Shown here one piece after another: positions 1 through 63,785 of a stretch of DNA of 64,000 nucleotides. How positions within the stretch are numbered: the first letter of the stretch is position 1; each line of letters begins with the position of its first letter. The DNA comes from Dehalococcoidia bacterium (GTDB lineage Bacteria; Chloroflexota; Dehalococcoidia; SHYB01). The translations under genes and the position numbers were made by a program. The stretch covers positions 604,062-668,061 of the forward strand of contig CBDCOW010000001.1 in assembly GCA_965219875.1 (NCBI GenBank), given 5' to 3'. The notes under the pieces were generated by a model that saw nothing but the letters and a program-made list of their open reading frames with translations, did not search any database and was not told the origin of the DNA.

Positions 1-5
1 GTAGC

Positions 6-215
6 TCAGGGCACGGGGTCCGACCCGGCGCCCCCCCAAGGAGCGCAGCGGGCAAGGCGCCGCACCGTCAGCCAGCCTCCTCGAACAAAGCCGTGGCGCG
101 TAATCGCCTCCTCCCCGTAGTGCGAACACGTAGGAGAGTAGCGGCACGCGCCCGGATAGTAGGGCGAAAGGGCGGCGCGGTAGAACTTGATGCCCAGGAG
201 CGCAATCGACTTCAT
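6..215 (-). CDS. yidD: membrane protein insertion efficiency factor YidD
   Basis: 69 aa ORF with the conserved Cys-rich RYxPTCSHY signature; 4-nt overlap with upstream rnpA; classic rpmH-rnpA-yidD order. Confidence 0.85.
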
Positions 216-565
216 ATTGTGTCTCTGCGCGGACCCGGCTCATACAGCCTGCCGCGCTTCAGGAGATGCTTCGCGGCGGCCTCGATTGCCTGAAAGGTGG
301 CGCCGGCGGCGGCCGGACGCGCAATGAAGACGAGGTCCCACCCCTTGGCAACCGGCGCGCGCCGCGCGATCTCTCTCAAGCGGCGCTTGACCCGATTCCT
401 TACGACCGCCTTTCCCACGCGGCGGCTTACCAGAAAGCCGAAGCGGCTAAACTCTGTTTCGTTCGCGAGAGCCCGTAGTGTAAGGAGAGGCCCCGACCAT
501 CCGCGCCCTTGTCGGCGCACCCTCGCGTAGTCCGAGCCCTTTCTGAGCCGCGCCTCTTTGCGCAT
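212..565 (-). CDS. rnpA: ribonuclease P protein component
   Basis: 117 aa, very basic, RnpA-like length and composition; position between rpmH and yidD. Confidence 0.85.
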
Positions 566-576
566 GCGGCTCCACG

Positions 577-714
577 CTACACGGTCAGGCGCTCTCGGCC
601 CTTCAGCCGACGCCGTTTCAGCACCTCACGGCCGTGTCGGTCACTCATCCGAGCCCGGAACCCGTGCACGCGCTTTCTTCGGCGCGCCTTGGGTTGATAC
701 GTTCGTTTTGGCAT
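577..714 (-). CDS. rpmH: 50S ribosomal protein L34
   Basis: Hand translation of minus strand gives [45 protein letters not shown] (45 aa, below ORF-track cutoff); ATG at 714, TAG at 577-579. Confidence 0.85.
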
Positions 715-740
715 AGAAGATTCCCTGGTAGAACCGACCC

Positions 741-770
741 ATTATAGGTTCAGCCCACCCCTAGGGGCAA
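741..770 (-). promoter_or_regulatory. candidate sigma70-type promoter for rpmH (TTGCCC - 18 nt - TATAAT on minus strand)
   Basis: perfect TATAAT hexamer (plus-strand attata 741-746) with TTGCCC-like -35 (765-770) in the 60-nt gap between mtnB stop and rpmH start. Confidence 0.35.
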
Positions 771-773
771 GCC

Positions 774-1463
774 TCATGGCTGCGACCGGCCCGTGCGCTC
801 CCCCCACAGGATATCGCAGATGAACTCGGCGGCTTCAAGCCGGTTGCGGGCCTGCTCGATACTCTCGCCCCAGACCGTAAGACCGTGGCCGGCGACGAGA
901 AGGGCCGGGAGGGGCGCGTCGGAGGCGTCGAGGAGAACCCCCACATCCTCGGCGAGGGCCTCCATGTCGGAGCGGTTGGCGAGCACGGGAATCTCGGCGC
1001 GGAGGACGCAGTCCTTCCAAGAGACGCCCAGTCCCTTTAGCATCTCCAACCCCTCGGCCACGACCGGGCGGAGCTCGCCGCCACCAGCCGCCGCCCGCGA
1101 CAGCGCCGTCGACGCCACGGTGTGGACGTGAAAGACCGCCCCGGCCTCCGGCAGCCGTTCGTAGATCGTCCGGTGGATCGCCGCCTCCGCCGAAGGACCG
1201 CGGCGCGGCGCGCCCAACGCGGGCAGCAGGAAGCGGCTCTCTTCAGGAATCACTGCGATGTCGGCGTAGCCCAGCGCCCCCTTACTCGCGCCGCTGCCCG
1301 TGATAGCGACCACCGGCTCGCCCTCCGCCACGGGGCCGGAGTCGAGGCGCGCCGACAGATTCCCCGACGTGCCCAGCATCCAGCCCCGTTCGTAGAACGA
1401 CCGCGCCGCCGCGATTAGTTCGTCGATGGCGGCCATGGCCTCGGAGGCGTCGGCGGGCGTCAT
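774..1463 (-). CDS. mtnB: methylthioribulose-1-phosphate dehydratase (class II aldolase/adducin family)
   Basis: 229 aa; GNLSAR motif and class II aldolase His-rich region; in mtnW-mtnX-mtnB-mtnD context. Confidence 0.7.
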   Translation of the reverse strand: MTPADASEAMAAIDELIAAARSFYERGWMLGTSGNLSARLDSGPVAEGEPVVAITGSGASKGALGYADIAVIPEESRFLLPALGAPRRGPSAEAAIHRTIYERLPEAGAVFHVHTVASTALSRAAAGGGELRPVVAEGLEMLKGLGVSWKDCVLRAEIPVLANRSDMEALAEDVGVLLDASDAPLPALLVAGHGLTVWGESIEQARNRLEAAEFICDILWGERTGRSQP

Positions 1464-2176
1464 GGCGGGCCCTCACCCAGAGGGGGCGTCGTGGCCGGAA
1501 ACGTGTAGGAGTCGCGCAGCGTGTCACGGACGTCCAGCAGCGTGTCGAACGCATGATAAGGAAGCCCGCGCTCGCGCATGATCGCGGCGAGCCGGTCGCG
1601 GGCGAAGACGGCGTCGGCGGCCAGCGCCCCGTGCTCGTCGGTGATGCTGTCGCCGACGACGATGCGGAAGGTGTCCTGGAAGCCCTCCATCGCCTTGGCC
1701 TTGCACAGCGCGCACGTCTCGCAGGCCATGTCAGTACGGGCGCGGATGACCTCGCCGGACAAGTCCGCCGGAATCGAGACGATGCGCGAGATGAGCCCGC
1801 GGTAGGGCTCTAGGACCGGCTCGACGAAGAAGTCGAGGGCGCCGGTCGTGACGGTGAACTCGATCGAGGCGGCGCGGCAGTAGCGCAGCAGATCGTCGAA
1901 CCCCGGCCGGAAGCGGACGATGCGCTTGGCGAAGGCGGCGATCTCCGGCGCGCGGCTCGCGGGGATCCGGGCGAAGACTTCGGGTACCCCTTGAAGCAAA
2001 CTCTTCCGCCCCGCCAGCATGGCCTCGACGTCGCGCTCCCAGCCCGGCGGCGCGAACGCGCGCCACACCTCGACGATCACTTCGTCCATCGTGATCGTGC
2101 CGTCGAAGTCGCAGAAGACCACGGGCCGCCGCTCGACGACCCGAACGTTCCCTGCGTCTGCGGGGCTTATGCCCAT
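1460..2176 (-). CDS. mtnX: 2-hydroxy-3-keto-5-methylthiopentenyl-1-phosphate phosphatase (HAD family)
   Basis: 238 aa; HAD motif I DFDGTIT near N-terminus; overlaps mtnB start by 4 nt; Bacillus-like mtnWXB order. Confidence 0.65.
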   Translation of the reverse strand: MGISPADAGNVRVVERRPVVFCDFDGTITMDEVIVEVWRAFAPPGWERDVEAMLAGRKSLLQGVPEVFARIPASRAPEIAAFAKRIVRFRPGFDDLLRYCRAASIEFTVTTGALDFFVEPVLEPYRGLISRIVSIPADLSGEVIRARTDMACETCALCKAKAMEGFQDTFRIVVGDSITDEHGALAADAVFARDRLAAIMRERGLPYHAFDTLLDVRDTLRDSYTFPATTPPLGEGPP

Positions 2177-3369
2177 AGCTTCAGAGCCGCGGCAAGCTCG
2201 GGCGTATCGGCGCTGCTGGGGTCAGCCCCTTCGAGTGCGAGTTCGATGGACTGGCGAAAGGCCACCGCCCCGGCGCGGCTGCCCATAGGGTGGCCGTGGA
2301 CCCCGCCGCCGGCGTTGATCACCACGTCCCGCCCATAGTCGGCGACAATGCGGGGAGTCAGGCCGGGGTGAATCCCCGCGGAGGGGCCGGGAAACGCCGC
2401 CGCCACGCCCGGCATGGGGCGGGTGAGACGGTCGCGGATCGCCTCCGTCTCATCGTGCCGCAGCGCGACCGTGCCATAGCTGGAAGGGAAGAGCACCACG
2501 TCGGCGCCCGCGGCGCGCATCAGCGTGCCAAGGATGACGTGGTAGGCGATGCCGTGGCGCGGCGCGCCGCCGAGCGCGCCCGACACCGCGGGATGGGCCA
2601 CGATGGGCACGCCGACCTCTGGGTCCCGGGCCAGCGCCTCCAACGTCCCGTACCCGTAGGCCAGCACGTTGAGCAGGAAGCACGACGCGCCCCGTCGTGC
2701 CAGGTCGCGGGCGCGCTCGACGATCTCACCGGCGCGTGCGGTCAAGTTGACCGCGTAGAGCGTCTTGTGCCCCGTCGCCGACTCGACGGCGCTGGCCGCT
2801 TCCAGGCAGCGCTCCAGCCGGCGCTCGGTGGGGCAGCTCTCCAGATCGGGCAGGATCTCGTCGTCCTTCACCACGTCGGCGCCGCCCTCCGCCTGCTCTC
2901 GGAACATGGCGGCGAGGTCGTCGGGCGTGAGCCCCACGCAGGGCTTGAAGATCGACATCACCAGCGGACGGTCCGCGACGCCTAGCAGCCGGCGCAGTCC
3001 TTCGACCCCGAACCGCGGGCCGGGCAGGCCGACCATGAACTCCGGCGGCAGCTCGAGGTCCGCCAGCCGTATCGCGCCGTCCATGCTGACCTTGCCGAAG
3101 ACCATCACCAGCAGCGTCGCCACGTCGCCCTCAGTATTCTCGGGAGGATAGCCGATGGTGACCTCGGCGGTGTGCACGCCGTCATGGACGGCGGCCTCGC
3201 CCGCGTCGAGCACGCGCCCCCGGTGGCGTTCCAGTCGCTCCAGCCCGCCGCGCTCCGTCGGCGTCCACGTATCGGTCGTCTGCCCCAAGGCAATCCCCAA
3301 CGCCTTCTTCTCGGCGTCAAAAGGCTCGGGCGACGAGACGATGTAGGTCGCGCGGATGAGATCGGCCAT
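2167..3369 (-). CDS. mtnW: RuBisCO-like protein, 2,3-diketo-5-methylthiopentyl-1-phosphate enolase
   Basis: 400 aa; RuBisCO large-subunit-like with KDDE motif; heads methionine-salvage operon. Confidence 0.75.
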   Translation of the reverse strand: MADLIRATYIVSSPEPFDAEKKALGIALGQTTDTWTPTERGGLERLERHRGRVLDAGEAAVHDGVHTAEVTIGYPPENTEGDVATLLVMVFGKVSMDGAIRLADLELPPEFMVGLPGPRFGVEGLRRLLGVADRPLVMSIFKPCVGLTPDDLAAMFREQAEGGADVVKDDEILPDLESCPTERRLERCLEAASAVESATGHKTLYAVNLTARAGEIVERARDLARRGASCFLLNVLAYGYGTLEALARDPEVGVPIVAHPAVSGALGGAPRHGIAYHVILGTLMRAAGADVVLFPSSYGTVALRHDETEAIRDRLTRPMPGVAAAFPGPSAGIHPGLTPRIVADYGRDVVINAGGGVHGHPMGSRAGAVAFRQSIELALEGADPSSADTPELAAALKLWA

Positions 3370-3409
3370 GATGCTTCACGTCAGAGGCGGAACGAAGAGC
3401 GCGGTGCGG

Positions 3410-3919
3410 CTAGGACTCGCGGTAGTGAGGCGCCCAGCCCGCGGTGTCTTTGAACAAACGGATGGCCTTAACGTGGCGGGCATCGGTGAGCGTGAACCAG
3501 TGGTACGTCCCCGCGGGGACGATGATGTAGTCGCCCGCCGACACGGTGACGGCGAAAGGGTCGCCGTCCTCCGGCTCGAAGCCGAAGACGCCCTCGCCGG
3601 CGAAGATGTAGCGCACCTCGTCATCGTCGTGGTAGTGCGCCTTGTCGAACTTCGCCAGCATCTCGTCAAGGCCGGGCGTCTCGGGGCTCAGCACGACCAT
3701 GTCGGCCATGATGTAGCCGCGGGCCTGGTTTTCGGACTCGAGGCGCGGGCGGAAGGCCGCCAGCACCGCCGCCTTCTCGTCGTCGGAGAGCGCAGGCTTG
3801 GCTTGGAGGGCGGCCACCTCGCCGGGGATGGGCCACGCGTCGTAGGGGATGCCGCGCGCTTGCAAGAAGTCGAGGGCCGCCCCGGAGCCGCCGCCAGGCG
3901 GCGCTTGGATCGCAACCAT
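3410..3919 (-). CDS. mtnD: acireductone dioxygenase (cupin)
   Basis: 169 aa cupin with ARD-like His/Glu pattern; upstream of mtnW on same strand. Confidence 0.7.
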   Translation of the reverse strand: MVAIQAPPGGGSGAALDFLQARGIPYDAWPIPGEVAALQAKPALSDDEKAAVLAAFRPRLESENQARGYIMADMVVLSPETPGLDEMLAKFDKAHYHDDDEVRYIFAGEGVFGFEPEDGDPFAVTVSAGDYIIVPAGTYHWFTLTDARHVKAIRLFKDTAGWAPHYRES

Positions 3920-4041
3920 GTGAGCCTCCTCTACGCGCCCATTCTACCGCCTCCCGCTGCCCAGCGGGCCGTGGCGGCTCTCGAAGTCGTAGTGGTATAG
4001 TGACAGGAGCGCGGAGGGCGGCAGGCTATCCGCGCCCCGGT

Positions 4042-4118
4042 CGCCAACGTAGCTCAGCTGGTCAGAGCGGGCGCTTCATAAGCGCTAGGTCGCAGGTTCA
4101 AGTCCTGCCGTTGGCACC
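4042..4118 (+). tRNA. tRNA-Met (anticodon CAT, elongator-type; could be lysidine-modified Ile2)
   Basis: cloverleaf folded by hand: acceptor GCCAACG/CGTTGGC, anticodon loop TTCATAA, T-loop TTCAAGT, encoded CCA. Confidence 0.8.
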
Positions 4119-4186
4119 ACAAAAAGTAAAGACATTGGCGCCGCGCCGCCGGCCCCGCCGCGGAACGGTCGCAACATTGAGCACGC

Positions 4187-4263
4187 GGGCGCTTAGCTCA
4201 GCCGGTTAGAGCGCATCCTTCACACGGATGAGGTCAGTGGTTCGAGTCCACTAGCGCCCACCA
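4187..4263 (+). tRNA. tRNA-Val (anticodon CAC)
   Basis: acceptor GGGCGCT/AGCGCCC, anticodon loop TTCACAC, T-loop TTCGAGT, encoded CCA. Confidence 0.8.
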
Positions 4264-4354
4264 TGACGCTCATGGCAGAGATGCGAGTGAGTGTGAGATG
4301 ATTGAAGTCCAAGTGATGACCAGGTATTGCTGAGTCCAGGCGACAGGTAAATGC

Positions 4355-4876
4355 ATGGCAGACGTGGTATTTGAGATCAAGACGAACAAGGGAGCGGCTG
4401 TTCGCGGCGCTGTGGTGCTGGTAGCCTATCCTGACGGAAGATACCTCACCGGTCAGACCGACGCCGACGGTAAGTGTCGGCTGAACCTATACCGCACCGA
4501 TCACGAAATGAAGGTGCTTGTAGCTGCGGAGGGCCATCTACCTTTCCATAAAACCACTATTCCGGGAAAATCAGAAATCGTGCCCGTGGAGCTAGAGCCG
4601 TCAAAGGACGACAAGAAGGCACTGCTCTTTACCCGCAGCACAGGATATATCCCAGGGATTGAGGGACGCCTCAATCCGCTCAAGGGTGGTTATGTCTATG
4701 GTGACAACATCGCCATCAACGGGCGACTCGCAAAACCTGCCGCACATTTTACGATAGGAGAATGCCTCCATTTGATCGACGTGTACGGCGTAGAGACGAC
4801 TATCCGGTTTCTGGAGGTTGAGGGGCAATTCTCTCTTATTGAGTACACCGAGCCCAAAGCTTACTCTGGGAAATAA
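4355..4876 (+). CDS. hypothetical protein, N-terminal carboxypeptidase-regulatory/transthyretin-like beta domain
   Basis: 173 aa; N-terminal ~80 aa fit the CarbopepD_reg-like pattern (G.V..G.P..GA.V.L....TGQTDADGK..L.L); C-terminal ~90 aa unassignable; AT-richer than flanks; stop 3 nt before next gene. Confidence 0.45.
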   Translation: MADVVFEIKTNKGAAVRGAVVLVAYPDGRYLTGQTDADGKCRLNLYRTDHEMKVLVAAEGHLPFHKTTIPGKSEIVPVELEPSKDDKKALLFTRSTGYIPGIEGRLNPLKGGYVYGDNIAINGRLAKPAAHFTIGECLHLIDVYGVETTIRFLEVEGQFSLIEYTEPKAYSGK

Positions 4877-4878
4877 AC

Positions 4879-5247
4879 GTGGCCACGGCGGAGCAACATC
4901 GAGCGATTAGCACTCAGTTCTTGGAGCACGCCGAGGACGAATTACGTAAAGGCGATCTGCTTCAGGCCTCCGAGAAGGCATGGGGGGCGATTTCCCACTA
5001 TGTGAACTCCGTTGCCCGTCAGCGGAACTGGCCTTTGGGATCGCACAGCCGACTGATCGCAAATGCCAACAAGCTAATCAGCGGCGACCCAGCCAACGCG
5101 AGCCATAAGCGGAGGCTGCTCCGATCAATCGAGGCGCTACATGCTAACTTCTATCAAGCATTCTTGGACGAGGATTCGGTGGGCGAGGGCATTCAGGACG
5201 CCAAGGAACTTATCAGAACCCTAGAAGTCCCTAACACGGACACATAG
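4879..5247 (+). CDS. HEPN-like protein (Rx4-6H motif)
   Basis: 122 aa all-helical; RSIEALH matches HEPN R-x4-6-H motif near C-terminus; tightly coupled to preceding ORF. Confidence 0.45.
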   Translation: MATAEQHRAISTQFLEHAEDELRKGDLLQASEKAWGAISHYVNSVARQRNWPLGSHSRLIANANKLISGDPANASHKRRLLRSIEALHANFYQAFLDEDSVGEGIQDAKELIRTLEVPNTDT

Positions 5248-5547
5248 TAGGTGTCTTGGACGTTTGAGTGGGCGCACTCTCTTCGTAACTCTGATTTCAT
5301 CAGGGCCGAACGAACGACCGGAACGGGGCTGCCAAGGCATCGCTTGCGTTCCTCAGCCCCGTCGCACCATAGTGCCCAAGCCGAGGGCCTCGGTAGGTTC
5401 ACAGCGCCCCCAACCACATCTCGAAGATGGTACTGCCTACCGTCCAATCAGGCTCACCACGCGTTACAAACCCCAGAACCTTCACGCTGAGGTTCCGGTT
5501 TAGCGCCTTCCATTCGGCGCGCTTCAGCGCCTTGTTTTGGTGCTCGG

Positions 5548-7542
5548 CTACAGCGTGCGTCCGGCGCGGGCGCCGTCGAGCATGGCGTGCATGATGCGCC
5601 GCGGGGCGAGGCTGTCCCCGATGAGGACAAGCTCTTTCGTCTTGCCCCGGAGCGCCTTCGCCAGGCGGTCGTCGGCCCTCGTGCCGCAGGCGAGGACCAC
5701 CGTGTCGACGCCTCGGACCTTCCGCTCCCGGCGGGTGAACGTCTGCAACAGCGTCGCCCCAGGGGCGTCGAAGCTCTGGATGCGGGTCATCATCGAGATC
5801 GTCACACCCTTGGTGAGAAGCCTCTTGAACAACAGATAACGCGTCGGGTGCTCGGCCCCGAGGGACAGATCGACTTGCTCGGAGATAAGCTCGACCTCCT
5901 TGCCCTGGTCGGCGAGGAACTCGGCCGCCGTCGGAGCCCCGATGTGGTCGTCCATGCCGCCGACGACGATCACCTTCTCACCGGCCACGGCAGCCCCTGA
6001 GAAAAGGTCGATCGCGGTGATCACGTGAGGACTCTCGACGCCGGGAAACTCGGGGATGTAGGGGCGGCCCCCGGTGGCGACGACGACCGCGTCGGGGGCC
6101 ATCTCGAGGACGACGTCGGCTTCTATCTCGTCGCCCAGGAGTAGCTCGACCTTGGCCTGGCGGAGCTCTCGTTGGAAGAAGACGATCATGTCGGCCAGGT
6201 TGCGGCGGTTGGGGTCCTGCGCCAGGATGCGGACCGTGCCGCCGAGCGCCTTCTCGCGGTCGCCCAGATAGACCTGGTGGCCGCGCAGGGCAGCCGCTCG
6301 GGCGGCCTCCATGCCCGCCGGCCCGGCGCCCACGACGAGGACCGTCTTCCTGACCTCCGCCGGCACGATCTCCATCTCGGCTTCCCGGCCCGCCGCCGGG
6401 TTCACCGCGCACATCACCGGCTTCCGGGCGTGTCCAATGTAGTGGCACTCGTCCATGCCGACGCACATGCGGATGTCGTCGGGGCGTCCTTCTTTCGCCT
6501 TGACCGGCAACTCGGGGTCGGCTATCAGGGCGCGGACCATGCCGACCATGTCGGCCGCGCCGTCGGCGAGGATGCTGTTCGCCATCGCGGGGTCGGTGAT
6601 CTTACCGGTAACGAAGACGGGCACGTCGACGAGCTTCTTGACCGCGGCCGCGGCCTCCACGTTGTGGGCGGGCCGCACGTACCACGGGCTGACGTAGGCG
6701 ATCTCGAGGCCGTCGGCCAGGCCGGTGTAGTTGCCGCCGCTGACACTGATAAAGGCGACGTGAGGCGAGAGCGACTGGCCGATGCCGGCAAGCTCGTCGA
6801 TGGTGAGGCCGCCGTGCCGGCCGTCGCCGTCCAGCCCGATCCGAATGCCGATGGGGTAGTCGGGACCGACGAGGTTGCGACCCGCCTCGATGATCTCCAA
6901 CACGAAACGGACACGGTTCTCGCGGCTTCCGCCGTAACGGTCCTCCCGCAGGTTGAACCGGGGCGAGAGGAACTCGGTGACCAGATATCCATGCGCGCCG
7001 TGGATCTCGGCGGCGTCGAGGCCCGCCTCCTTGGCCCGCCGGATGCCGTGGGCAAAGGTGGTCACCAGGTCGGCGATCTCCTCTTCGGTCAGCTCGTGAG
7101 GGACAGCGGCGTCGAAGGGCTCGGGGACCGTCGAGGGGCCGAAGGCGGGCTGCAGGCTGTCGCGATGCATGCCGGCCCCGGCGTTGTAGACCTGGCCGAA
7201 GACCTTGGCCCCCTCATCGTGGATCACCTCGGCGCGCTTGCGTAGGCCCGGGATGCCTATCTTGTCGAAGAACTCGATGCCCTCGGGCGTCGCCGGATTG
7301 GGTAGGCGCACGTCGAAGTCGCGACCGTGATTCTCCTTCCAGCGTCCCGGCCCAAGGGGGAAATTCGTCGTGCCCGCGGAATGGATGCCGATGAGCGCCG
7401 CCCCGCCCCGGGCCCGCTCTTGGAGGTACCGCAGATCGCGCTGCTCCGAGTGCCCCGTGCCATGGGTGGTCATCACGATGCGGTTCCGCACCGCGAAGTT
7501 GCCGATCTGGAGTGGTTCGAAGAGGCGTGGAAAGTCGGGCAT
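5548..7542 (-). CDS. NADH:flavin oxidoreductase (old yellow enzyme N-domain + FAD/NAD(P)-binding C-domain), 2,4-dienoyl-CoA reductase-like
   Basis: 664 aa; OYE TIM-barrel N-terminus, Cys cluster (CVGMDECHYIGH) and two GxGxxG Rossmann motifs C-terminally. Confidence 0.8.
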   Translation of the reverse strand: MPDFPRLFEPLQIGNFAVRNRIVMTTHGTGHSEQRDLRYLQERARGGAALIGIHSAGTTNFPLGPGRWKENHGRDFDVRLPNPATPEGIEFFDKIGIPGLRKRAEVIHDEGAKVFGQVYNAGAGMHRDSLQPAFGPSTVPEPFDAAVPHELTEEEIADLVTTFAHGIRRAKEAGLDAAEIHGAHGYLVTEFLSPRFNLREDRYGGSRENRVRFVLEIIEAGRNLVGPDYPIGIRIGLDGDGRHGGLTIDELAGIGQSLSPHVAFISVSGGNYTGLADGLEIAYVSPWYVRPAHNVEAAAAVKKLVDVPVFVTGKITDPAMANSILADGAADMVGMVRALIADPELPVKAKEGRPDDIRMCVGMDECHYIGHARKPVMCAVNPAAGREAEMEIVPAEVRKTVLVVGAGPAGMEAARAAALRGHQVYLGDREKALGGTVRILAQDPNRRNLADMIVFFQRELRQAKVELLLGDEIEADVVLEMAPDAVVVATGGRPYIPEFPGVESPHVITAIDLFSGAAVAGEKVIVVGGMDDHIGAPTAAEFLADQGKEVELISEQVDLSLGAEHPTRYLLFKRLLTKGVTISMMTRIQSFDAPGATLLQTFTRRERKVRGVDTVVLACGTRADDRLAKALRGKTKELVLIGDSLAPRRIMHAMLDGARAGRTL

Positions 7543-7634
7543 GATTTTCTCTTGGGGAAGGGTCGCACTGCGGGCCGGGCGCTACTACGCACGCCGCCCG
7601 CTGACCCCGATGCCGCCGACCACCATCATAAAAT

Positions 7635-7665
7635 GCTAGGTCGCAGGTTCAAGTCCTGCCCACCA
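7635..7665 (+). repeat. degenerate direct copy of tRNA-Met 3' part (26/26 nt GCTAGGTCGCAGGTTCAAGTCCTGCC, then CACCA after a 5-nt gap)
   Basis: exact 26-nt identity with tRNA-Met 4083-4108 (variable loop + T-arm); att-like remnant. Confidence 0.5.
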
Positions 7666-7804
7666 CCTCCAAGGTCGTCGGTTCCACCTCTACTCATTCG
7701 CTCGGGGGTCGCGAGAAGCGAACGGTCGCGCGGCGTGGGAACAAACCTACGCCGGGCCGCGTCTATAAATATGTAGACTCATCCCCACCACCGAGGCCGC
7801 CCGA

Positions 7805-8510
7805 ATGAAGACCACGACCAAGACCGCCCTCCTCTCCTTCCTGACCGTATCGACCATCCTTCTGGCGGCCGCCTGCCAGAGCGCGTCCGGGCCACCCAAC
7901 GCGACGTGGGAAGCCCCGTCGGGCCGGGAACCCAACGCCTCGGTAACCGGCAGCGTCTCCTACCGGGAGCGGTTGGCCCTGACGCCGGGCGCGGCCCTCG
8001 TCGTCGAGCTGCGGGACGTCTCCTACGCCGACGCCCCCGCTCCCCTCATCGCTCGCCAGACCATCTCCGGGCCCGGGCAAGTTCCCATCAAGTTCGAAGT
8101 GCGATACAACCGCCAGGACATCAACCCCCGGAACACCTATGGACTGAGCGCCCGGATCGTCGAATCCGACGGCCGCCTCGCCTTCACCAACGACACCGCC
8201 TACGACGTGATCACCCGCGGGAATCCCGACAAAGTGGACATGCTCCTCGTCCTAGTGGAGCCGCCCCCCCGACCAGGTAGGCGACAACGCGGACTGGCGC
8301 ACCTGGGTCGAGGTCCCCGCCCCCATCGTTTGGGCCAATCTGATACCCAACGAGACGGAAAACCTGCTGCGGATCGCCTACTACCAGTCCACGATCGAAG
8401 GCTGCGCCCGCCCCGGCAACCAGGAATTGGAGTTGGACGGCAACGACATCATCGTCCGGCTTACGCTGATGCAGCCGCCACCCAACCTCCTGGGCGATTC
8501 CTTGCGATGA
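7805..8510 (+). pseudogene. YbaY-family lipoprotein, frameshifted at poly-C tract (8264-8270); C-terminal continuation in +1 frame to 8510
   Basis: signal peptide + lipobox LAAAC; YbaY-like SVTGSVSYRERLALTPGA...RDVSYADAPAP pattern; after C7 tract ORF-track frame becomes R/P/G junk while the +1 frame reads a protein-like PPDQVGDNADWRTWVEVPAPIVWANLIPNETENLLRIAYYQSTIEGCARPGNQELELDGNDIIVRLTLMQPPPNLLGDSLR*. Confidence 0.45.
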
Positions 8511-8514
8511 GCAG

Positions 8515-8976
8515 GTGGTGGAGCTTGACGCCGTAGAGCCCATCAGACAGCCGCTTCGATCTGGCCAGACCTACCGGGTGATAGCAAACGGCCAGGAAAC
8601 CACCTCCTTTACCCTGCCACTGCTCGGCCGGCGGCACACGGTTATCGCCGAGTCGCCGATCGAGCTCGCCGAGGTGGTGCTCCTAGAAAGCGCTCCGCCC
8701 CAGTACCAGCTTCGCGTCCTCTCTGCCTTGGCGAAAGGGAGCAGCTGCTCGCAGTTCAACGGCTACGAAATCCGCCGAACAGACGCCGACCGCATCGACG
8801 TGGCCATCACCCACCATCAGACTGCCGACTCGGTTGGCCCCTTTACCGCTGCCCCCTGTACCGCCGACTACCCCATCGTAGAGACCAACGTCCCGTTAGG
8901 TTCCGACTTCGAGCGCGGCGTCGAGTACACCGTCACCGTGAACACAGACACCACGACGTCATTCGTAGCCCGGTAG
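8515..8976 (+). CDS. hypothetical protein (possible META/HslJ-like domain; GTG start 4 nt after preceding stop, may be third part of the lipoprotein)
   Basis: 153 aa with diverse composition; GSSCSQFNGYEI resembles META-domain GCN motif. Confidence 0.3.
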   Translation: MVELDAVEPIRQPLRSGQTYRVIANGQETTSFTLPLLGRRHTVIAESPIELAEVVLLESAPPQYQLRVLSALAKGSSCSQFNGYEIRRTDADRIDVAITHHQTADSVGPFTAAPCTADYPIVETNVPLGSDFERGVEYTVTVNTDTTTSFVAR

Positions 8977-9065
8977 CGACATCCGAACCGGCTACGCTTC
9001 GCTCACCGTCGGGTAGAATGTGACCGCACGGAACTTCCCTGCGCCTACCGGAAAGGACCAACGCC

Positions 9066-9719
9066 ATGCTGAGATTCGTCGAGGAAATCACCCTGCTCCT
9101 GCTCCACGACGACGACGGGAGGTTCGCGCGCGTCCCCAGTTGGTCGCTCAGCTACGCCCTCGCCGGCGGCGTGCTCATGGACCTCGCCATGGAGAACCGC
9201 ATCGACACCGACCTTGAGCATCTCATCCTGGTGGACGCCACCCCCACCGGCGACAGCCTGCTCGACCCAACGCTGGCCGAGGTCGCGGCTGGCGAGAAGC
9301 ACGACGCCCGCTACTGGGTCGAACAGACCGCGGAGCGCTCCGATGTCATCCAGGAGGAAGCCCTCACCCGCCTCATCGCCCTCGGCATCCTGGAGCGCCA
9401 GGAAGACCGCTTCCTCTGGGTCTTCCGTTCCAGGCGCTACCCGATGATCGACGGTCAGGCCGAGCGCGAGGTCAAGCTGCGCATCATGAGCGTGCTGTTC
9501 AGCGACGAGATCCCCGACCCGCGCGACGTGGTGATCATCTGTCTCGCCGACGCCTGCGGCATCTTCAAGGAGCTCCTGTCCAAGCGGGAGTTGGAACAAG
9601 CCGCCCCCCGCATCGAGCAGGTGCGCAAACTGGACCTCATCGGCCAAGCGATGACCCAGGCGATCCACGACATCGAACTCTCGGTCGCCGCCTCGGTACA
9701 GGGCCACTACCTCTACTAA
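9066..9719 (+). CDS. GPP34/GOLPH3 family protein
   Basis: 217 aa; N-terminal LLLLHDDDGRF...ALAGGVLMDL pattern typical of bacterial GPP34. Confidence 0.65.
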   Translation: MLRFVEEITLLLLHDDDGRFARVPSWSLSYALAGGVLMDLAMENRIDTDLEHLILVDATPTGDSLLDPTLAEVAAGEKHDARYWVEQTAERSDVIQEEALTRLIALGILERQEDRFLWVFRSRRYPMIDGQAEREVKLRIMSVLFSDEIPDPRDVVIICLADACGIFKELLSKRELEQAAPRIEQVRKLDLIGQAMTQAIHDIELSVAASVQGHYLY

Positions 9720-10160
9720 CGCACCGCCCTCCCGTTCCCCCTCCCGAATGCCGCTCTGCACCTCTCTCCGTCCGGAGACCTTTGCGTAACTCCGCCAACG
9801 GAGAGTTCGCAAACCTCCGGTCTTGGCGAGGGGAGCGGGTGAGCGGTCTTACCTCCTCTCCCAACGGAGACCTTTGCAAAACTCCGTCGAGGGGAGGAAC
9901 GCCGCCCGCGGCCTTGGGAAAGGGAGCCGGCGCGGGGTTTTACCCCCCTCTCCCGCTGGGTGAGGGCGGGGGGAGGCGGGGGCCGCGCGACCTTGCTGAA
10001 GCCCGCCCGCGTCAGTCGCTTCGGCTCACAGGGGTCCCCCCGGAGAGAGGGCACGCCCCAGCACCTGATAACGGTACCCGCCCGATCCCAAGGCCATCGA
10101 CCCACCCGCCGCTGGCCACGCCGTTGACCGGCGTCCGGAGACCGTCTACGCTCCGCACCA
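9720..10160. repeat. repeat-rich intergenic region with two direct copies of the 17-mer GGAGACCTTTGC(G/A)(T/A)AAC (9774, 9866) and G/C-rich CTCTCCC..GGGAGAGG palindromes
   Basis: read directly; same 17-mer as IS5-element termini. Confidence 0.6.
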
Positions 10161-10188: not shown

Positions 10189-10737
10189 ATGCCCGGATCC
10201 ACGGACAACGGCGACAGCCTCGCGGCGCGGGTAGACCGCCTCGACGCCTACCGGCAGATCAGGCAGTTGCCCCACCGCTACGGCCTGGCCCTCGACACCC
10301 GCAACATCGACGACCTCGTGGCGCTCTTCATCGAGGATGTCCAGGTGGGCCGCGACAAGTGGGGCCGTGCCGCGCTGCGGGACTGGTTCGTCCGCTCGTC
10401 CAGCAAGTTCCAGGCGAGCATCCACTTCGTCGGCAACCACGTCATCGACCTCGACGACGAAGACCACGCCCACGGCGTCGTCTACTGCCGGGACGAGATC
10501 GACCGCCCCGGCGAGTGGATGGTCGGCATGATCCAGTACTGGGACACCTACGAGCGCCGCGACGGTGTGTGGTTCTTCAAGCGCCGCAGGCTCATGCGCT
10601 GGTACGGCGTCGACGCTCTCACCCGCCCCAGCGCCGGCGCCGGCATCGCCCGCGGCAGCGCGCCCGTGGGCCGCCTCCCCGAATCATGGCCAAGCTGGCA
10701 GCGCTACTGGGACGAAGTCGCCGCCCTCGGCGAGTGA
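10189..10737 (+). CDS. SnoaL-like / nuclear transport factor 2 family protein
   Basis: ATG at 10189 preceded by AGGAGGA; NTF2-like length and pattern. Confidence 0.55.
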   Translation: MPGSTDNGDSLAARVDRLDAYRQIRQLPHRYGLALDTRNIDDLVALFIEDVQVGRDKWGRAALRDWFVRSSSKFQASIHFVGNHVIDLDDEDHAHGVVYCRDEIDRPGEWMVGMIQYWDTYERRDGVWFFKRRRLMRWYGVDALTRPSAGAGIARGSAPVGRLPESWPSWQRYWDEVAALGE

Positions 10738-10815
10738 CGGCAAGCCCGCCTCGGCCCGCCGCCGACCTGCGTTCGTTGACAGCGCCCAAAAGCCGTGCCT
10801 AGAATCGACTCTCCT

Positions 10816-10890
10816 GCGGGCGTAACTCAGTGGTAGAGTGTTTGCTTCCCAAGCAAAAGGTCGTGGGTTCGAATCCCATCGCCCGCTCCA
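10816..10890 (+). tRNA. tRNA-Gly (anticodon CCC)
   Basis: acceptor GCGGGCG/CGCCCGC, anticodon loop TTCCCAA, T-loop TTCGAAT, encoded CCA. Confidence 0.8.
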
Positions 10891-10944
10891 CCCCCACAGA
10901 CTGCTATCGCCCTCTCCTTCGTCGAGGCAGGAATCTGTGGATTC

Positions 10945-11553
10945 CTAGCTCGGGCTGGCAATAGCGTCGGCAGCTTGCTCTATTCGGCCACCTTCCTTTA
11001 TCCCTGCGAGGGCAGCTTCCCTGCTGATGTGCGGTTTGAGCTCCGTGATCCAGTTCGCTAACCGATCGTCATCCATGTCGACGTATTCCCGTCTCAGGAA
11101 GAAGGCCGTCGCGATCCGCTCCAGATCAGCGACGTTAAGCGTGGCGATTCGTTGGGCGACGAAGCTGACCTGCTCCTTGTATCTGCTTCGCATCCGAGAA
11201 AACCTAGCCGCCACACTCTGGGCAAGCAGCCCCGGTTTGAAGCGAGGGCCATACGGGGGGTTCGGCTCAAGCCCGACCAAAGTGCTCGCCCGCATGGCCG
11301 TAAGCTCATCATGGAGATCGAACGAATACGGGCCGTGCTTGTAGATCACGTAGTCGTAATCGAGCGGGGGATCAAAGAGCGCTTGAAGAAAGAAGACGGA
11401 CTTCTGTACTTGGGTCTCGCCGCACCAACTTTTCGTAGCGTTCATGCGTTCGATCAGATAGGCCAACAGGGCTCGCTTCACGACATCGCTAGGCACCGGA
11501 CTCCTCCTCTGCTTTGCCCGCCGCTTCCAAGACCGCAGCCTTATTTTCTGCAA
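10945..11553 (-). CDS. Panacea-domain (DUF4065, SocA-like) protein; start uncertain (possibly GTG near 11484-11496)
   Basis: RALLAYLIERMNATKSWCGETQVQKSVFFLQ...YKHGPYSFDL parallels SocA N-terminus (AIANWFVRRAARDGRALSIMQLLKLVYMAH...WQYGPV); AT-richer islet after tRNA-Gly. Confidence 0.55.
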   Translation of the reverse strand: MQKIRLRSWKRRAKQRRSPVPSDVVKRALLAYLIERMNATKSWCGETQVQKSVFFLQALFDPPLDYDYVIYKHGPYSFDLHDELTAMRASTLVGLEPNPPYGPRFKPGLLAQSVAARFSRMRSRYKEQVSFVAQRIATLNVADLERIATAFFLRREYVDMDDDRLANWITELKPHISREAALAGIKEGGRIEQAADAIASPS

Positions 11554-12805
11554 TCCAAGCCCGCGACGCTTCCCTAATGGCCGGATCGACTAGGACGTAA
11601 TCGTATGTCGCTGGAGGAATCGTCCTCAAGGTTTGTGATAGCTCCTGCGCATCTACGACGCTCCCGTTGTCGTCGAGAACAGGGAAGCTGACAACGGCCC
11701 CGCCTTCCACGCGCTCTATCGCCTTGACCTTATCCGGCCCAAACTCTTGCTCGAGCGCACTCCCGACGACTCGACCAGGGTTCTGACAGTGAGTTAGGTC
11801 ACCTGGGCTCCGGGTGTACACGCGCCTGAAATGTTGCCGGTCGATAATCCTCCGTGCATAGGTATGCGCGGGATGCGCTGGGTCGTTCGCTGCTTCCAGC
11901 ATACCGACCGTGACTTCCGCGTCAGTATAATGCATGAATTTTTCGACATCTAACGGAATCACGCCTCCTGGAAGCCATTTCCGAAGAAAATCAATCAAGT
12001 GCTGGTCATAGGCCAGTCTCACCCGGTGATAGTACACCTACGTATACATGAAGTACCTGGCCAACAGCAGGGCTTCCGCCGAATGCAAACCTCCAGCGTC
12101 CACCCCAAGCGCCGGCGCGCCGGATTCTGGCTGAAGGAGGATGCGCAGCGTGTCGATGAGCCGATGATGATCGAACCGACCATATGCGACGCCTACGTGA
12201 TGGGAGTCTCTAAGGAGGTAGTCGATTCGATCTACGCCGAACGCGTCGTTCACAATCAATTCGGACAATAGCGCCTCCCAGTCCGAGAGGGTCTGTCCAC
12301 TCCTCTTGCGCCCAACTGCCAGTTTTGCGATGTGCTCTGGGAGCAAAGGAGGAATGGTCTCACGCCAGAGCCTCATCAGTTCCGGCGAGTTGATGAGTTG
12401 CACCGTCATGTCCTCATGGGTCTCGCCTTCAGGCAACAACTCCTTCTCTGCCGCATGGGAGAATGGCAGGTGTCCCAGATCGTGGCAAAGAGCCGCCATC
12501 CTGAGGACTCTGCGCCAATAGGCCCGCTTGTCAGGCTGAGCTAGCTCAGGGAGGCGTTCTCTGACTGCTGGCTGCAGGTTCTGCTCATGGGTGATGACGT
12601 CAAACGCACGCCCCGCTAGCTCCATTGCCCCTAGTGCATGCTCGAAGCGCCGATGCGTGGCGCCGGGGTAGACGAGATACGTAAGCGCTAGTTGATGGAG
12701 ATGCCGCAACCGCTGAACGGGCCGGGAGTCCAAGACCGCTCGTTCGTCCGAATCGAGCCGGATGAACACATGGATGGGATCCCTGATTTCGTGAAAAGCC
12801 TTCAA
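11489..12805 (-). pseudogene. HD-domain dNTP triphosphohydrolase (dGTPase/SAMHD1 family) interrupted by in-frame TAG at 12038-12040
   Basis: THRRFEHALGA, CHDLGHLPFSHAAE, VDRIDYLLRDSHHVGVAYG motifs; two adjacent ORFs are in the same frame, reading ...ARYFMYT*VYYHRVRLAY across a TAG. Confidence 0.7.
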
Positions 12806-12900
12806 TGGTTCGCCCGAAGCAAGTTGCCCTCCGGTTCAGGGGCATAAGTCTTCGTCATGGCCGGGTGGTCCCGCAAGGCCCACATGGCGCGAACCCGCTC

Positions 12901-49024: not shown

Positions 49025-50067
49025 CGCAGGAAGCCGCTACCCAAGCCGCCGCACAAGACACCGCCGCCAACGGCGGCCGGACCGCCGCCCACGGCGAACT
49101 CCTGCTTGAGGTCCGCAACCTCAAGATGTACTTCCCTGTGACCCAGGGGATCGTCTTCCAGCGGAAGGTCGCCGATATCAAAGCCGTAGACGACGTCAGT
49201 TTCCACATCAACCGCGGCGAGACCTTGGGCCTCGTCGGCGAGAGCGGCTGCGGCAAGACCACCACGGGCAGGGCCATCCTCCAGCTCTACCAGCCCACCG
49301 ACGGCTCGGTGGTCTACGATGGCCGCGACCTCACCGCGATGCGACCGTCCGAGATGCGGCCGATGCGGCAGCGGATGCAGATCATCTTCCAAGACCCCTA
49401 CGGCTCCCTGAACCCCCGCATGACCGCGGGCGGCATCATCGGCGAGCCGCTGGTCATTCACAACCTGGCATCCACCAAGGAAGAGCGCAACGCGCGGGTT
49501 GAAGAACTGCTCACCATTGTGGGGCTCAACCCCCACATGAAAGACCGCTACCCCCATGAGTTCTCCGGCGGCCAGCGCCAGCGCATCGGGGTCGCCCGGG
49601 CGCTCGCGGTGCAGCCCGACCTGATCGTCTGCGACGAGCCGGTCTCGGCGCTCGACGTCTCGATTCAAGCCCAGATCATCAACCTTCTGGAAGAGCTCCA
49701 GGAGCAGTTCGGCCTGACCTACCTGTTCATCGCCCACGACCTCGCCGTTGTCCGTCACATCAGCGACCGCATCGCCGTCATGTACCTCGGCAAGGTCATG
49801 GAGCTTGCCGACCGCAACGAGCTCTACGAGAACCCGCTGCACCCCTACACCAAGGCGCTGCTCTCCGCCGTCCCGGTTCCCGACCCGGTGGTCGAGGCCA
49901 AGCGCGAGCGCATCGTCCTGCAAGGCGACGTGCCGAGCCCGCTCAACCCGCCCACCGGTTGCGTCTTCCACACGCGCTGCCCCATCGCCATCGACGTCTG
50001 CAAGGCGGAGATACCGGAGTGGCGCGAGATGGCCAAGGACCACTTCGTCGCCTGCCACCGCGTCTAG
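49021..50067 (+). CDS. ABC transporter ATP-binding protein (DppF/OppF-like)
   Basis: Walker [10 protein letters not shown], signature FSGGQRQR. Confidence 0.8.
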
Positions 50068-50069
50068 AC

Positions 50070-50290
50070 GCGCATTCGACAAACGGCTGCTTTCGAGGGC
50101 GTCCCGAAATGGGGCGCCCTCGTTTTTTGCCGTTGACCCTCTCCTTTGGAGACCTGTGCAAAGCGTTAGCGCGGAGGGAACGGGCGCCCACAAGGGGCGC
50201 CCCTACGGGAGGGGATGGATTCCCGCGAAAGCGGGAAGATCTCCTTTGGGACACGCTTGCGTGACCCGCTTGGCGGCATCAAACAACCAT
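50070..50290. repeat. REP/MITE-like repeat cluster: GGAGACCTGTGCAAAGC variant, GGGCGCCCACAAGGGGCGCCCCTACGGGAGGG hairpin module, GGATGGATTCCCGCGAAAGCGGGAAG hairpin module
   Basis: same modules recur at 53776, 57208, 58670, 58835. Confidence 0.6.
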
Positions 50291-50400
50291 TATCTACTTG
50301 ACGTTTTCTAGCAGGGGTGCCAAGATCAGGCTATGCGGTTGGGAGGGCTGCCTTAGCGGTCCGTTGAGACATGGTTCTCGCCCGGCCGCCTTTTCTTTGT

Positions 50401-51129
50401 ATGCACCTGTTATATCTAGACGACGCTGGTTCGGTTGGGAATCCGAACGACAAGCACTTCATTCTAGCGGGAATCGCCGTATTCGAGCGTCAGGCCCATT
50501 GGCTTGACGCCGAACTGGAGAAACTGGCTGCAAGTCTTGGATATAGCAATCCCGCCAACATCGAGTTCCATGGGGGTCAGATTCTTTCGGGCCGCGGTCT
50601 CTGGCGACGGGAGCCAACAGTTGAGCGCCGCAGCATCATAAGGCGCGGGCTAGAAACGGCGCGGGCGCTTCTTGGAGACTGGCGGCTCTTCGGGGCTGTG
50701 GTCGACAAGCGTGAACGCTCTCCTGAGGACCCGACCGAATACGCCTTCGAGCAACTCTGCAACAGGTTTGATCGTTTTCTCCAGCGCTTGCACCATCAGG
50801 GTGACAGCCAGAGAGGACTGATCGTTCTGGACAAGTCTACGAGGGAAACGCGACTCCAATCCCTTGCTGCTGAATTCAAAACAGCAGGACATCGATGGGG
50901 TGTCACCCGGAATCTGGCCGACGTGCCATTCTTCGTCGATTCGAAGGCGACGCGCCTAATCCAGTATGCCGATCTCGTTTCTTACGCGTTGTGGCGGAAA
51001 TTCGAGAAGCAGGACGACGAGTTCTTCGATGCGGTCTCGGATGCCTTTGACCGGGAGGGAAGCGTCGTCCACGGTCTTCATCACTACAAGAACCGTAGCG
51101 AGTTCTGTGACTGCCCCGGTTGCGCTTGA
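50401..51129 (+). CDS. DUF3800-family protein with C-terminal CxCxxC-type Cys cluster
   Basis: starts MHLLYLDDAGS...FILAGIAV (DUF3800 N-terminal signature YiDESG-like); AT-richer than flanks; ends ...EFCDCPGCA. Confidence 0.5.
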   Translation: MHLLYLDDAGSVGNPNDKHFILAGIAVFERQAHWLDAELEKLAASLGYSNPANIEFHGGQILSGRGLWRREPTVERRSIIRRGLETARALLGDWRLFGAVVDKRERSPEDPTEYAFEQLCNRFDRFLQRLHHQGDSQRGLIVLDKSTRETRLQSLAAEFKTAGHRWGVTRNLADVPFFVDSKATRLIQYADLVSYALWRKFEKQDDEFFDAVSDAFDREGSVVHGLHHYKNRSEFCDCPGCA

Positions 51130-62646: not shown

Positions 62647-63129
62647 ATGGCTGCGAACGATGAACGAGAAGTCCTTATCCAGACCCTGGACAAGACGGTA
62701 AGGGAGGGCTTGGGCTTCTTTGGCAGGCTCGCGGACACCCCCGTCAGAGTAGGAGTTTGGGGCCCGAAAGAGGTGCTCTCACACTTTCTTTTCTACCACC
62801 AACTGGCTGTCGAGGGCATGAAGTCCAGGCGCGGTGGAGGGGCTCCGTACAAGATGGATGCGCACGTGGACCAGCTCAACGCCCGCGCAGTGGCCCGCGA
62901 GGCTGGGAGAACCATCGAGGAGTTAGTCGCAGACATCCAGCGAGCCCATAAGGACCTTCGAGAGGAAGGTCGTCTGGCTCCCGACTTGGGAGCTGTGGCG
63001 GTCGTTCGTTGGGATGACACGACGTCAACCGTGCGCCATCGGTTCACGTCCTACAACGATCACTGGTTGGAACACATGCGGGACTGGACAGCAGCCATCA
63101 ACGAACTCGAGGGCCGAACGATCGAATAG
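62647..63129 (+). CDS. hypothetical four-helix-bundle-like protein (DinB/ClbS-like guess)
   Basis: 160 aa, helical; His-containing FLFYHQLAVEGM and HWLEHMRDW segments. Confidence 0.35.
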   Translation: MAANDEREVLIQTLDKTVREGLGFFGRLADTPVRVGVWGPKEVLSHFLFYHQLAVEGMKSRRGGGAPYKMDAHVDQLNARAVAREAGRTIEELVADIQRAHKDLREEGRLAPDLGAVAVVRWDDTTSTVRHRFTSYNDHWLEHMRDWTAAINELEGRTIE

Positions 63130-63152
63130 GGGGAGGCAGATACGGCGCCAGC

Positions 63153-63494
63153 TTGCACACGCGGGAGTCGCTACACGACATCGGCGGATTCGTCTACGAC
63201 AGCAACTCGGTGAGCAACGACCTGCCCTACTACACGACCGTCAACGGGCAGCCATGGCTCGTGATTCCGTACACCCCCGAAGGCAACGACGCACGCTTCT
63301 GGAGGCGTGGCCTGGTCAGCACGGAAGACTTCTACCAGTACATGAAGGACTCCTTCGAATGTCTCTACGAAGACGAAGAGGGGGAAGGAGACACCGAAGA
63401 TGATGTCCGTAGGTCTCCACTGCCGCATCGCAGGACGGCCGCCACGCTCGGTCGCAGTAGAGCGCTTCCTCGAATGTGTGACAGCCTGTCCTAA
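63153..63494 (+). pseudogene. C-terminal fragment of a PuuE-like polysaccharide deacetylase
   Basis: YDSNSVSNDLPYY...WLVIPYTPEGNDARFW...STEDFYQYMKDSFECLYEDEE parallels the C-terminal third of the deacetylase at 21954..22832; no N-terminal part upstream. Confidence 0.35.
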
Positions 63495-63589
63495 GGTTGA
63501 ATGGCACGCCGCATCGACATCGCGAATTGGCGGCTCGACGATTGAGCGAACCTCCGGCCACGTGGCGAGCGGGCTGACGCGGAATACCC

Positions 63590-63781
63590 ATGAAAGAATC
63601 GCCTGACGGGTTGAACATGGATGGGTTACGGGCGCTGGCGGAAGCGTCGGGCCTGTCGATACCGGAAGAGGACCTCCAAGAGGTCGCATTCCGGCTCAAG
63701 GCACTGATGATCGAGGTCAAGAAAGTGGAGGGCCTCGATCTGGCAACGAGAGACCCGAATCCACTCTTTGCAAACGAGTAA
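63590..63781 (+). CDS. AtzG-like small protein (DUF4089, GatC-derived)
   Basis: 63 aa, immediately upstream of an amidase-signature gene, as AtzG sits upstream of AtzE; LSIPEEDLQEVAFRLKALMIEV pattern. Confidence 0.45.
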   Translation: MKESPDGLNMDGLRALAEASGLSIPEEDLQEVAFRLKALMIEVKKVEGLDLATRDPNPLFANE

Positions 63782-63785
63782 CGAC

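Follow-up and report, generated by a model that had tools for sequence, protein, structure and literature searches.

A 1.2-kb candidate mobile cassette at tRNA ends in Dehalococcoidia carries a gene pair with a PaREP1-type HEPN protein

A 64,000-nucleotide stretch of a Dehalococcoidia genome (hereafter the window, in whose coordinates all positions are given unless another locus is named) contains two small adjoining genes, A and B, just downstream of two transfer RNA genes. The locus raises the question of whether this pair belongs to a mobile element, where such an element begins and ends, and what the two proteins do. A preliminary description had proposed that positions 4119–7665 are one decayed islet integrated at tRNA-Met, without an integrase and with the gene pair and a flavoprotein gene inside. 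We find that an islet linked to a tRNA, lacking an integrase and carrying a HEPN pair is indeed present, and that it lies elsewhere, at 4264–5459 and beside tRNA-Val. Our preferred reading, to which we assign a probability of roughly 0.55, is that 4264–5459 is a mobile cassette of tRNA ends that lacks a recombinase and carries a toxin-antitoxin-like or abortive-infection pair, in which B is the HEPN effector and A its sensor or regulator.

The limits of the cassette are defined by comparison with other loci. It comprises 1,196 bp on the plus strand and consists of a 91-nt leader (4264..4354), gene A (4355..4876, 173 aa), gene B (4879..5247, 122 aa) and a 212-nt trailer (5248..5459), with sharp homology limits on both sides when compared with eight other contexts. 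The insertion point is exactly after the CCA of tRNA-Val(CAC) (4187..4263, plus strand), which was recognized by ARAGORN and Rfam and identified as the target from the alignment of junctions between loci. The last 8 nt of this tRNA, GCCCACCA (4256–4263), form the left copy of a terminal repeat. The right copy is imperfect and reads GGCTCACCA at 5451–5459, where relatives read GGCCCACCA. Homology between loci begins abruptly after ...GCCCACCA, at the junction CCA/TGACGCTCAT, and in most loci stops just as abruptly at ...AGGCCCACCA. The left junction, CCA/TGACGCT, falls on the identical base in eight contexts, three of which are not tRNA sites. At the other end the trailer closes with AGGCTCACCA (AGGCCCACCA in relatives), an element-borne copy of the tRNA 3′ end that is constant whatever the target; it follows that the right repeat copy is part of the element rather than a duplication of the target site. 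Cassettes in loci L004, L005, L006 and L043 are 1,192–1,197 bp long. No further copy of the left-end junction motif occurs within the window.

The same limits emerge from base composition. GC content drops from approximately 0.68 to 0.52–0.56, and the drop is confined to about 4270–5500; among 629 equal-sized segments of the 64 kb, 4264–5459 has the lowest GC content (0.549, z = −3.2). GC content at third codon positions (GC3) is 0.59 in A and 0.67 in B, versus 0.89 in the downstream flavoprotein gene, 0.91 in an acireductone dioxygenase (ARD) gene and 0.88 in a gene for a RuBisCO-like protein. The earlier remark that the A–B pair is AT-richer thus holds, while the flavoprotein gene has host-like composition and only 4264–5459 appears foreign. 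A similar offset is seen in other hosts, where the module has a GC content of 0.50–0.57 in most cases (0.53–0.55 in the mobile clade defined below) versus 0.58–0.68 for the host.

Both genes have more than 200 homologues each, at 50–95% identity and on the same contigs. A scan of loci, using one genome per species, yielded 56 A–B loci, all of them in metagenome-assembled genomes of Chloroflexota/Dehalococcoidia. In 52 of the 56 an intact B follows A at essentially unchanged spacing, and in two more B is frameshifted or split. Clustering of flanking genes resolves approximately 26 distinct contexts, and the genes that neighbour the cassette in the window occur at none of the 56 loci. The closest copies, whose A is 91% or more identical to that of the window (91–95% for the proteins), form what we term the mobile clade; the leader is 88–97% identical within it (blastn, upstream sequences of all loci) and the trailer is conserved in this clade only. 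Where these copies adjoin a tRNA, A starts 92 nt past the tRNA end, and the tRNA itself varies: Val(CAC) in the window, Val(GAC) in L003, Val(TAC) in L005/L043 and L046, and Lys(TTT), i.e., tRNA-Lys(UUU), in L006. Three copies (L001, L002 and L004) lie at sites that are not tRNAs and still end in CCA. Synonymous divergence (dS) within the clade is about 0.11. Because the unit recurs at different sites, we infer that it is mobile.

The two genes are tightly coupled, as the preliminary description had noted. Here 2 nt separate the A stop from the B start; in relatives the B ATG overlaps the A TGA stop (ATGA). At 4873–4881 of the window, a G-to-A change turns this stop into TAA and abolishes the overlapping ATG; B must therefore start at the GTG at 4879 and has 122 rather than 124 residues. 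The leader contains the motif GTGAGATGAT at 4293–4302, in place of which many relatives throughout the family have GTGAGATAAT; it may be a −10-like box, and a scan for consensus promoters gave no match. That the trailer forms a structured RNA or a site like attC was rejected as unsupported: the fold z-score is −1.85, and the fold of the alignment has only three compensatory pairs and an unfavourable covariation term.

Gene B encodes a HEPN protein of the PaREP1 clade. Its product scores 47.1 bits against Pfam PaREP1 (PF05942; cut-off 24.4, E = 2.6e-12) and 19.8 bits, just under the cut-off of 22, against the generic HEPN family PF05168. PF05942 is found in all 120 B homologues listed, and the profile of the B family matches the Sulfolobus PaREP1 structure 2JPU/2Q00. 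The AlphaFold model of B (mean predicted local distance difference test, pLDDT, 89.7) has five helices arranged in an all-alpha, up-down bundle of the HEPN type. Foldseek comparison of this model gives template modelling (TM) scores of 0.71 with 2Q00, 0.70 with 2hsb (AF_0298 HEPN), 0.68 with the sacsin HEPN domain (3o10), 0.64 with 1o3u, 0.61 with 1wol and 0.56–0.60 with HepT toxins. The characteristic R-x5-H motif reads R82-S-I-E-A-L-H88; across 31 homologues the His never varies, and conservation of the Arg is at least 90%. B is under purifying selection, with a ratio of nonsynonymous to synonymous substitution (dN/dS) of 0.10.

Archaeal PaREP1/PaREP8 proteins (PF05942; 2Q00/2JPU) are the best match to B in both sequence and fold, and the motifs GDLxQAxEK and LHxxF(Y/H) are present in both. 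The PaREP1/8 clade is described as mostly archaeal, with the His retained and the Arg often not conserved (Anantharaman et al. 2013, PMC3710099), and the residue of 2q00 that aligns with R82 is a Lys. Since R82 and H88 are both kept, the motif of the bacterial B subfamily is more complete. The archaeal genes are further described as occurring in tandem arrays or with MNT/restriction endonuclease (REase) genes (PMC3710099), whereas B is bacterial (Chloroflexota), retains R-x5-H and has a fixed new partner. Two diverged PaREP1 paralogues (31–38% identity to B) stand in tandem downstream of A–B in L039 (9085–9444 and 9651–10010 of that locus), an arrangement reminiscent of the archaeal PaREP arrays.

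Gene A encodes an all-beta protein (AlphaFold model, pLDDT 90.5) with two parts. Residues 1–82 form a transthyretin/CarboxypepD_reg/CnaB-like sandwich, identified by a weak hidden Markov model match (E = 0.002) and by Foldseek, whose matches to A are limited to this N-terminal domain. The C-terminal domain (approximately residues 87–173) has no match in Pfam, NCBIfam, PDB or BFVD. It is nevertheless the better conserved half, with a dN/dS of 0.10 versus 0.23 for the N-terminal half and 0.15, indicative of purifying selection, for A as a whole. The preliminary description had already read the first gene as a transthyretin-like domain followed by an unplaced half and the second as a HEPN protein with an R-x5-H motif, in a combination of partners that it did not recognize. 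These assignments are borne out: the partner is not an MNT protein and has no PADLOC match.

The C-terminal domain of A recurs in much larger proteins. Searched against 1.8 billion proteins, a profile of this domain matches 264 cluster representatives, nearly always at the C-terminus of longer chains; in 75 remote homologues a CarboxypepD_reg sandwich lies ahead of it. The N-terminal domains of those 75 proteins include TIR_2/TIR (matched by 10 and 5 members), SEFIR, DUF4062, caspase, trypsin-like protease, protein kinase, Schlafen with HATPase_c_4, PIN_8, PIN_12, EAD11, and AAA_14 with DUF4143. Residues 25–173 of A align with the C-terminal approximately 150 residues of TIR and SEFIR proteins at 35% identity (E = 1e-18 to 2e-23), and the module also lies inside WP_331375610.1, a protein of a Sinorhizobium plasmid that is annotated as a ‘TIR domain-containing protein’. 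None of the TIR and SEFIR homologues examined appears to have a partner gene. PADLOC models (bSEFIR, ThsB, PDC-S66 and others) cover only the N-terminal effector domains of these proteins, and no description of the TIR, CarboxypepD_reg and C-terminal domain architecture was found in the literature. A thus resembles a part of single-chain immune proteins that join effector and sensor (bSEFIR, ThsB-like TIR and the PADLOC candidate PDC-S66), in that the C-terminal 150 residues of these homologues correspond to the whole of A. It differs in that A has no effector domain and the effector in the window is a separate HEPN gene, and the PADLOC models do not extend over the A-like module.

B, which keeps a basic-x5-His motif, is probably an RNase effector or toxin, and A may, by analogy with the C-terminal sensors of the fused immune proteins, be its sensor or regulator, an antitoxin-like partner that restrains it. 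A would hold B in check until triggered, whereupon B would act as an RNase effector, and the pair would behave as a toxin-antitoxin-like or abortive-infection module. We propose that such a function would explain the persistence of so small a selfish unit; a role in addiction (toxin-antitoxin) agrees with the solitary and selfish distribution no less well than defence does. Among the closest known arrangements is that of HEPN-MNT (HepT-MntA) type II/VII toxin-antitoxin modules, which likewise consist of two small, co-directional, coupled genes with the HEPN gene (about 120 aa, Rx4-6H-type) downstream, and which are often mobile and compositionally foreign. Here, however, the partner is all-beta, with no nucleotidyltransferase match in Pfam, NCBIfam or PDB, and B falls in the PaREP1 (HEPN-T) clade rather than in DUF86/HepT.

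As for its movement, the cassette sits directly behind the encoded CCA of tRNA-Val(CAC) and bears at its distal end a copy of the tRNA end (GGCYCACCA); a recombinase encoded elsewhere would move it in trans by recognizing tRNA ends of the GCCCACCA type. A trans-acting recombinase is the most likely agent because the geometry matches site-specific integration into tRNA genes. The cassette has much in common with tRNA-targeted islands and with integrase-less, att-flanked, cis-mobilisable elements, namely insertion at a tRNA 3′ end, an intact tRNA, a distal direct repeat and foreign GC content. It differs from them in its size of 1.2 kb, in a repeat of 7–9 nt as against 15–60 nt, in the use of several tRNAs and of non-tRNA CCA sites, and in having no integrase in any copy. 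IS200/IS605-type transposons and their non-autonomous derivatives also resemble it: they lack terminal inverted repeats and target duplications, insert directly 3′ of a fixed short sequence, and close at the right end with a similar short sequence. The cassette has no TnpA or TnpB, however, and subterminal hairpins are not convincingly supported, which leaves the likeness to these transposons a resemblance only.

Several observations weigh against a mobile toxin-antitoxin-like cassette. Neither an empty site (tRNA-Val ...GCCCACCA joined to CGCGTTACAAAC) nor an excised circle (...AGGCCCACCA joined to TGACGCTCAT) was seen. Scanning of metagenomes with the adjacent ARD protein gave just two short, distant contigs, and a search via the closest homologues of the flavoprotein returned one non-syntenic locus and L058, the sole syntenic relative found (95% nucleotide identity over window 1–9727), which also has the cassette. 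Searches for a recombinase within and next to the copies examined, and among the neighbours in 30 contexts, found none; those neighbours are mainly housekeeping genes, with no association with defence islands. The terminal repeat is short, at 7–9 nt, and some copies have truncated ends. Nor is the right limit equally sharp everywhere, since about 44 nt past the right repeat are 77% identical between the window (5460–5505) and L005 (7392–7440) or L043 (9106–9155). On the functional side, neither A nor B has a match in PADLOC-DB 2.0 (zero families at E ≤ 1), and no homologue was found in phage or viral collections. The RNase activity of B is not assured, given that the catalytic Arg is often missing in the PaREP1 clade (PMC3710099). 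Finally, the more distant stand-alone A-like proteins have no PaREP1 neighbour, and for this reason operon coupling is the sole argument for an interaction of A with B.

The 44-nt stretch shared with L005 and L043 includes a hairpin (AACCTTCACGCTGAGGTT) that is changed on both arms, and the other loci diverge right at CACCA. The stretch could derive from homology of the targets, from donor flank that was carried over, or from a longer variant of the element. An exact 18-nt match to the hairpin AACCTTCACGCTGAGGTT is found in L007 and L010, approximately 3.9 kb downstream of their A genes.

Some of these observations would be expected if the cassette spread with no site-specific enzyme at all. 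Under this explanation, DNA uptake would be followed by homology-facilitated or microhomology-mediated illegitimate recombination, with the tRNA 3′ end (GGTTCGA...GCCCACCA) as the anchor. The brevity of the repeat, the ragged or truncated ends of several copies and the failure to detect a recombinase all fit, as does the fact that the targets have only GCCCACCA or just CCA in common; the extra flank in the window and in L005/L043 looks as if donor sequence had travelled along. Against such a process stands the precision of the ends. The left junction is the same base in eight contexts, three of them without a tRNA, and the right end is constant and borne by the element. An unrelated islet at tRNA-Gly in the window, with an 8-nt repeat of its own and a like geometry, also points to a systematic mechanism. 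We therefore regard spread by illegitimate recombination as unlikely.

That second islet occupies 10891–12894, directly after tRNA-Gly(CCC) (10816–10890). It is approximately 2.0 kb long, low in GC content (0.55–0.59) and without an integrase, and is delimited by an 8-nt repeat, CCCGCTCC, of the tRNA-Gly end; it is missing from L058. Its cargo, on the minus strand, comprises open reading frames of 202, 182 and 255 aa, the last with an HD domain, and the 182-aa and 255-aa frames may be one split gene. No integrase was found among the open reading frames of this islet, of the tRNA array in L046 described below, or in the gene upstream of the L001 copy. Because the tRNA-Gly islet has a like geometry and a different cargo, it suggests a general mechanism that acts at tRNA ends in this lineage.

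The preliminary description offers a second alternative, in which 4120–7634 is one decayed island in tRNA-Met, with tRNA-Val, the HEPN pair and the flavoprotein gene as cargo and with attR at its far end. The tRNA-Met(CAT) gene is intact (4043..4119, plus strand; ARAGORN; Rfam tRNA, 72.4 bits), and the exact 26-nt direct repeat on which the proposal was based, GCTAGGTCGCAGGTTCAAGTCCTGCC, is real (4084–4109 and 7635–7660); we estimate the chance expectation of such a repeat in 64 kb at about 5e-7. Local alignment extends the similarity beyond these 26 nt, from TCAT in the anticodon loop to CACCA+C, with matches at 38 of 40 aligned bases and two gaps, one of 1 nt and one of 5 nt (deletion of GTTGG). 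The downstream copy is thus a 3′-half pseudogene fragment of tRNA-Met on the plus strand, at 7626..7666, that runs from the anticodon loop to CCA. ARAGORN and Rfam find no tRNA at 7600–7700, and the Rfam scan returned two tRNAs and nothing else. The 26-mer is variable-loop and T-arm sequence that also occurs in an unrelated, ordinary tRNA-Asn of a viral contig, and so it is the match in the anticodon loop that ties the fragment to tRNA-Met. Integrases that cross over in the anticodon loop reportedly duplicate precisely this block, from the anticodon loop of the tRNA to its CCA. Long direct repeats that contain tRNAs also flank segments in L046, which indicates that classical tRNA islands do occur in the lineage.

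The content of the proposed island argues against it. The flavoprotein gene (5548..7542, minus strand, 664 aa) is a FadH/OYE-family member, as had been assigned (Oxidored_FMN, E = 5e-61, with Pyr_redox_2; OYE, old yellow enzyme). Its GC content of 0.68 and GC3 of 0.89 are those of the host, and the A–B unit travels without this gene or the tRNA-Met fragment at all 56 other loci. The gene is native by composition, lies outside the mobile unit and is not cargo, contrary to the earlier proposal. The low-GC part is limited to 4264–5459 and has boundaries of its own. The interval 4119–7665 is thus not foreign throughout, nor does it vary in L058, the one syntenic relative found, which has the same content here, including the tRNA-Met fragment. 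No integrase-like open reading frame lies between 4119 and 7665, as had been reported, and this too speaks against an integrase-made island. A Met-Val(CAC) pair with similar spacing is present in L046, although its spacer cannot be aligned with that of the window, making this a weak argument that tRNA-Val was not cargo. Overall, a single tRNA-Met island is improbable. The fragment at 7626–7666 is instead a relic that is separate from the cassette and older than it, and it may be an old att relic, the attR of an earlier integration into tRNA-Met. Just outside the cassette, a terminator-like hairpin with a T-run (5516..5541, plus strand) probably served the tRNA operon as its terminator originally.

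A third alternative concerns function, and holds that B is a HEPN protein without catalytic activity that serves in binding or as an adaptor, and that A–B is a regulatory or housekeeping pair specific to Dehalococcoidia. Very high sequence conservation, apparent vertical inheritance in a context group of 15 loci, housekeeping neighbours, the lack of a PADLOC match and the frequent description of the PaREP1 clade as lacking the canonical Arg (PMC3710099) are all in keeping with it, yet we consider it doubtful in view of the foreign composition of the pair in nearly every host, its recent spread (dS about 0.11) through some 26 contexts, the conservation of R82 and H88, and the repeated fusion of the A module to immune or suicide effector domains. 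Two further origins were rejected. A viral origin has no support, since no A homologue is found in IMG/VR or GenBank phages and the 26-mer of the viral contig belongs to the ordinary tRNA-Asn. An integron gene cassette is dismissed by inspection, the ends being TGACGCTCAT... and ...GGCCCACCA, with no GTTRRRY junction, array or intI.

The ingredients of the mobile HEPN cassette are known: HEPN toxin-antitoxin pairs, PaREP1 proteins, tRNA-targeted islands and immune proteins that join effector and sensor. What is new is their combination, that is, the domain family that partners the HEPN protein, a bacterial PaREP1 with R-x5-H, and a 1.2-kb recombinase-less cassette at several tRNA CCA ends. A more ambitious reading would unite all of these. 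The sandwich and C-terminal domain of A would be an undescribed sensor or regulatory module of many immune effectors, and A–B a split version of it that drives a HEPN RNase of the PaREP1 type in a new defence or addiction system. The 1.2-kb cassette would at the same time target several tRNA CCA ends, moved by a recombinase that it does not carry through a mechanism common to the tRNA-Gly islet, and would exemplify a lineage-wide ‘tRNA-end cassette’ system in Dehalococcoidia. We put this forward tentatively, as a possibility that falls well short of even odds.

If the proposed cassette and its gene pair are what they appear to be, A represents a new type of partner for HEPN toxins, and its C-terminal domain, recurring behind immune effectors, might serve generally in trigger sensing or autoinhibition as a module that databases do not yet name. 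A bacterial PaREP1 with the full catalytic motif would provide a tractable entry to a family so far represented almost exclusively by archaeal genomes and a single structure from structural genomics. A small cassette without a recombinase would likewise bear on how accessory genes are exchanged in uncultured Dehalococcoidia and on tRNA 3′ ends as hot spots. At present the cassette is a well-delimited candidate.

Individual copies and neighbouring regions show additional features. In L001, an insert with an IS1595-type transposase (6863–9242 of that locus) separates the trailer from the B 3′ end. The L072 copy has an IS630-like element with helix-turn-helix and DDE_3 domains (1818–2962) in its leader, downstream of tRNA-Val(TAC) and ahead of gene A. 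The tRNA array of L046 (3335–7909) comprises Leu(TAG), Met, Val(CAC), Leu(CAG), Arg(GCG) and Val(TAC); its Arg-Val(TAC) block is repeated, in partly degenerate form, around segments of 2.8 kb and 1.1 kb just upstream of the A–B cassette, and the array looks as if islands with long att repeats had accumulated in tandem.

Directly upstream of tRNA-Met in the window are methionine-salvage genes (2167–3919) that encode the RuBisCO-like protein (400 aa) and the ARD/cupin acireductone dioxygenase (169 aa). In L058 the methionine-salvage genes are followed by HAD and aldolase-II genes, an ordinary host context. L058 also carries a 2.2-kb insert between a SnoaL-like gene and tRNA-Gly (equivalent to about 10737–10816 of the window, where nothing corresponds to it), with two genes, at 3476–4558 and 2379–3425 of that locus, whose products of 360 and 348 aa have no Pfam match. 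Elsewhere in the window, GC content dips over 1 kb each at 50001–51000 (0.58) and 63001–64000 (0.60), versus a mean of 0.65.

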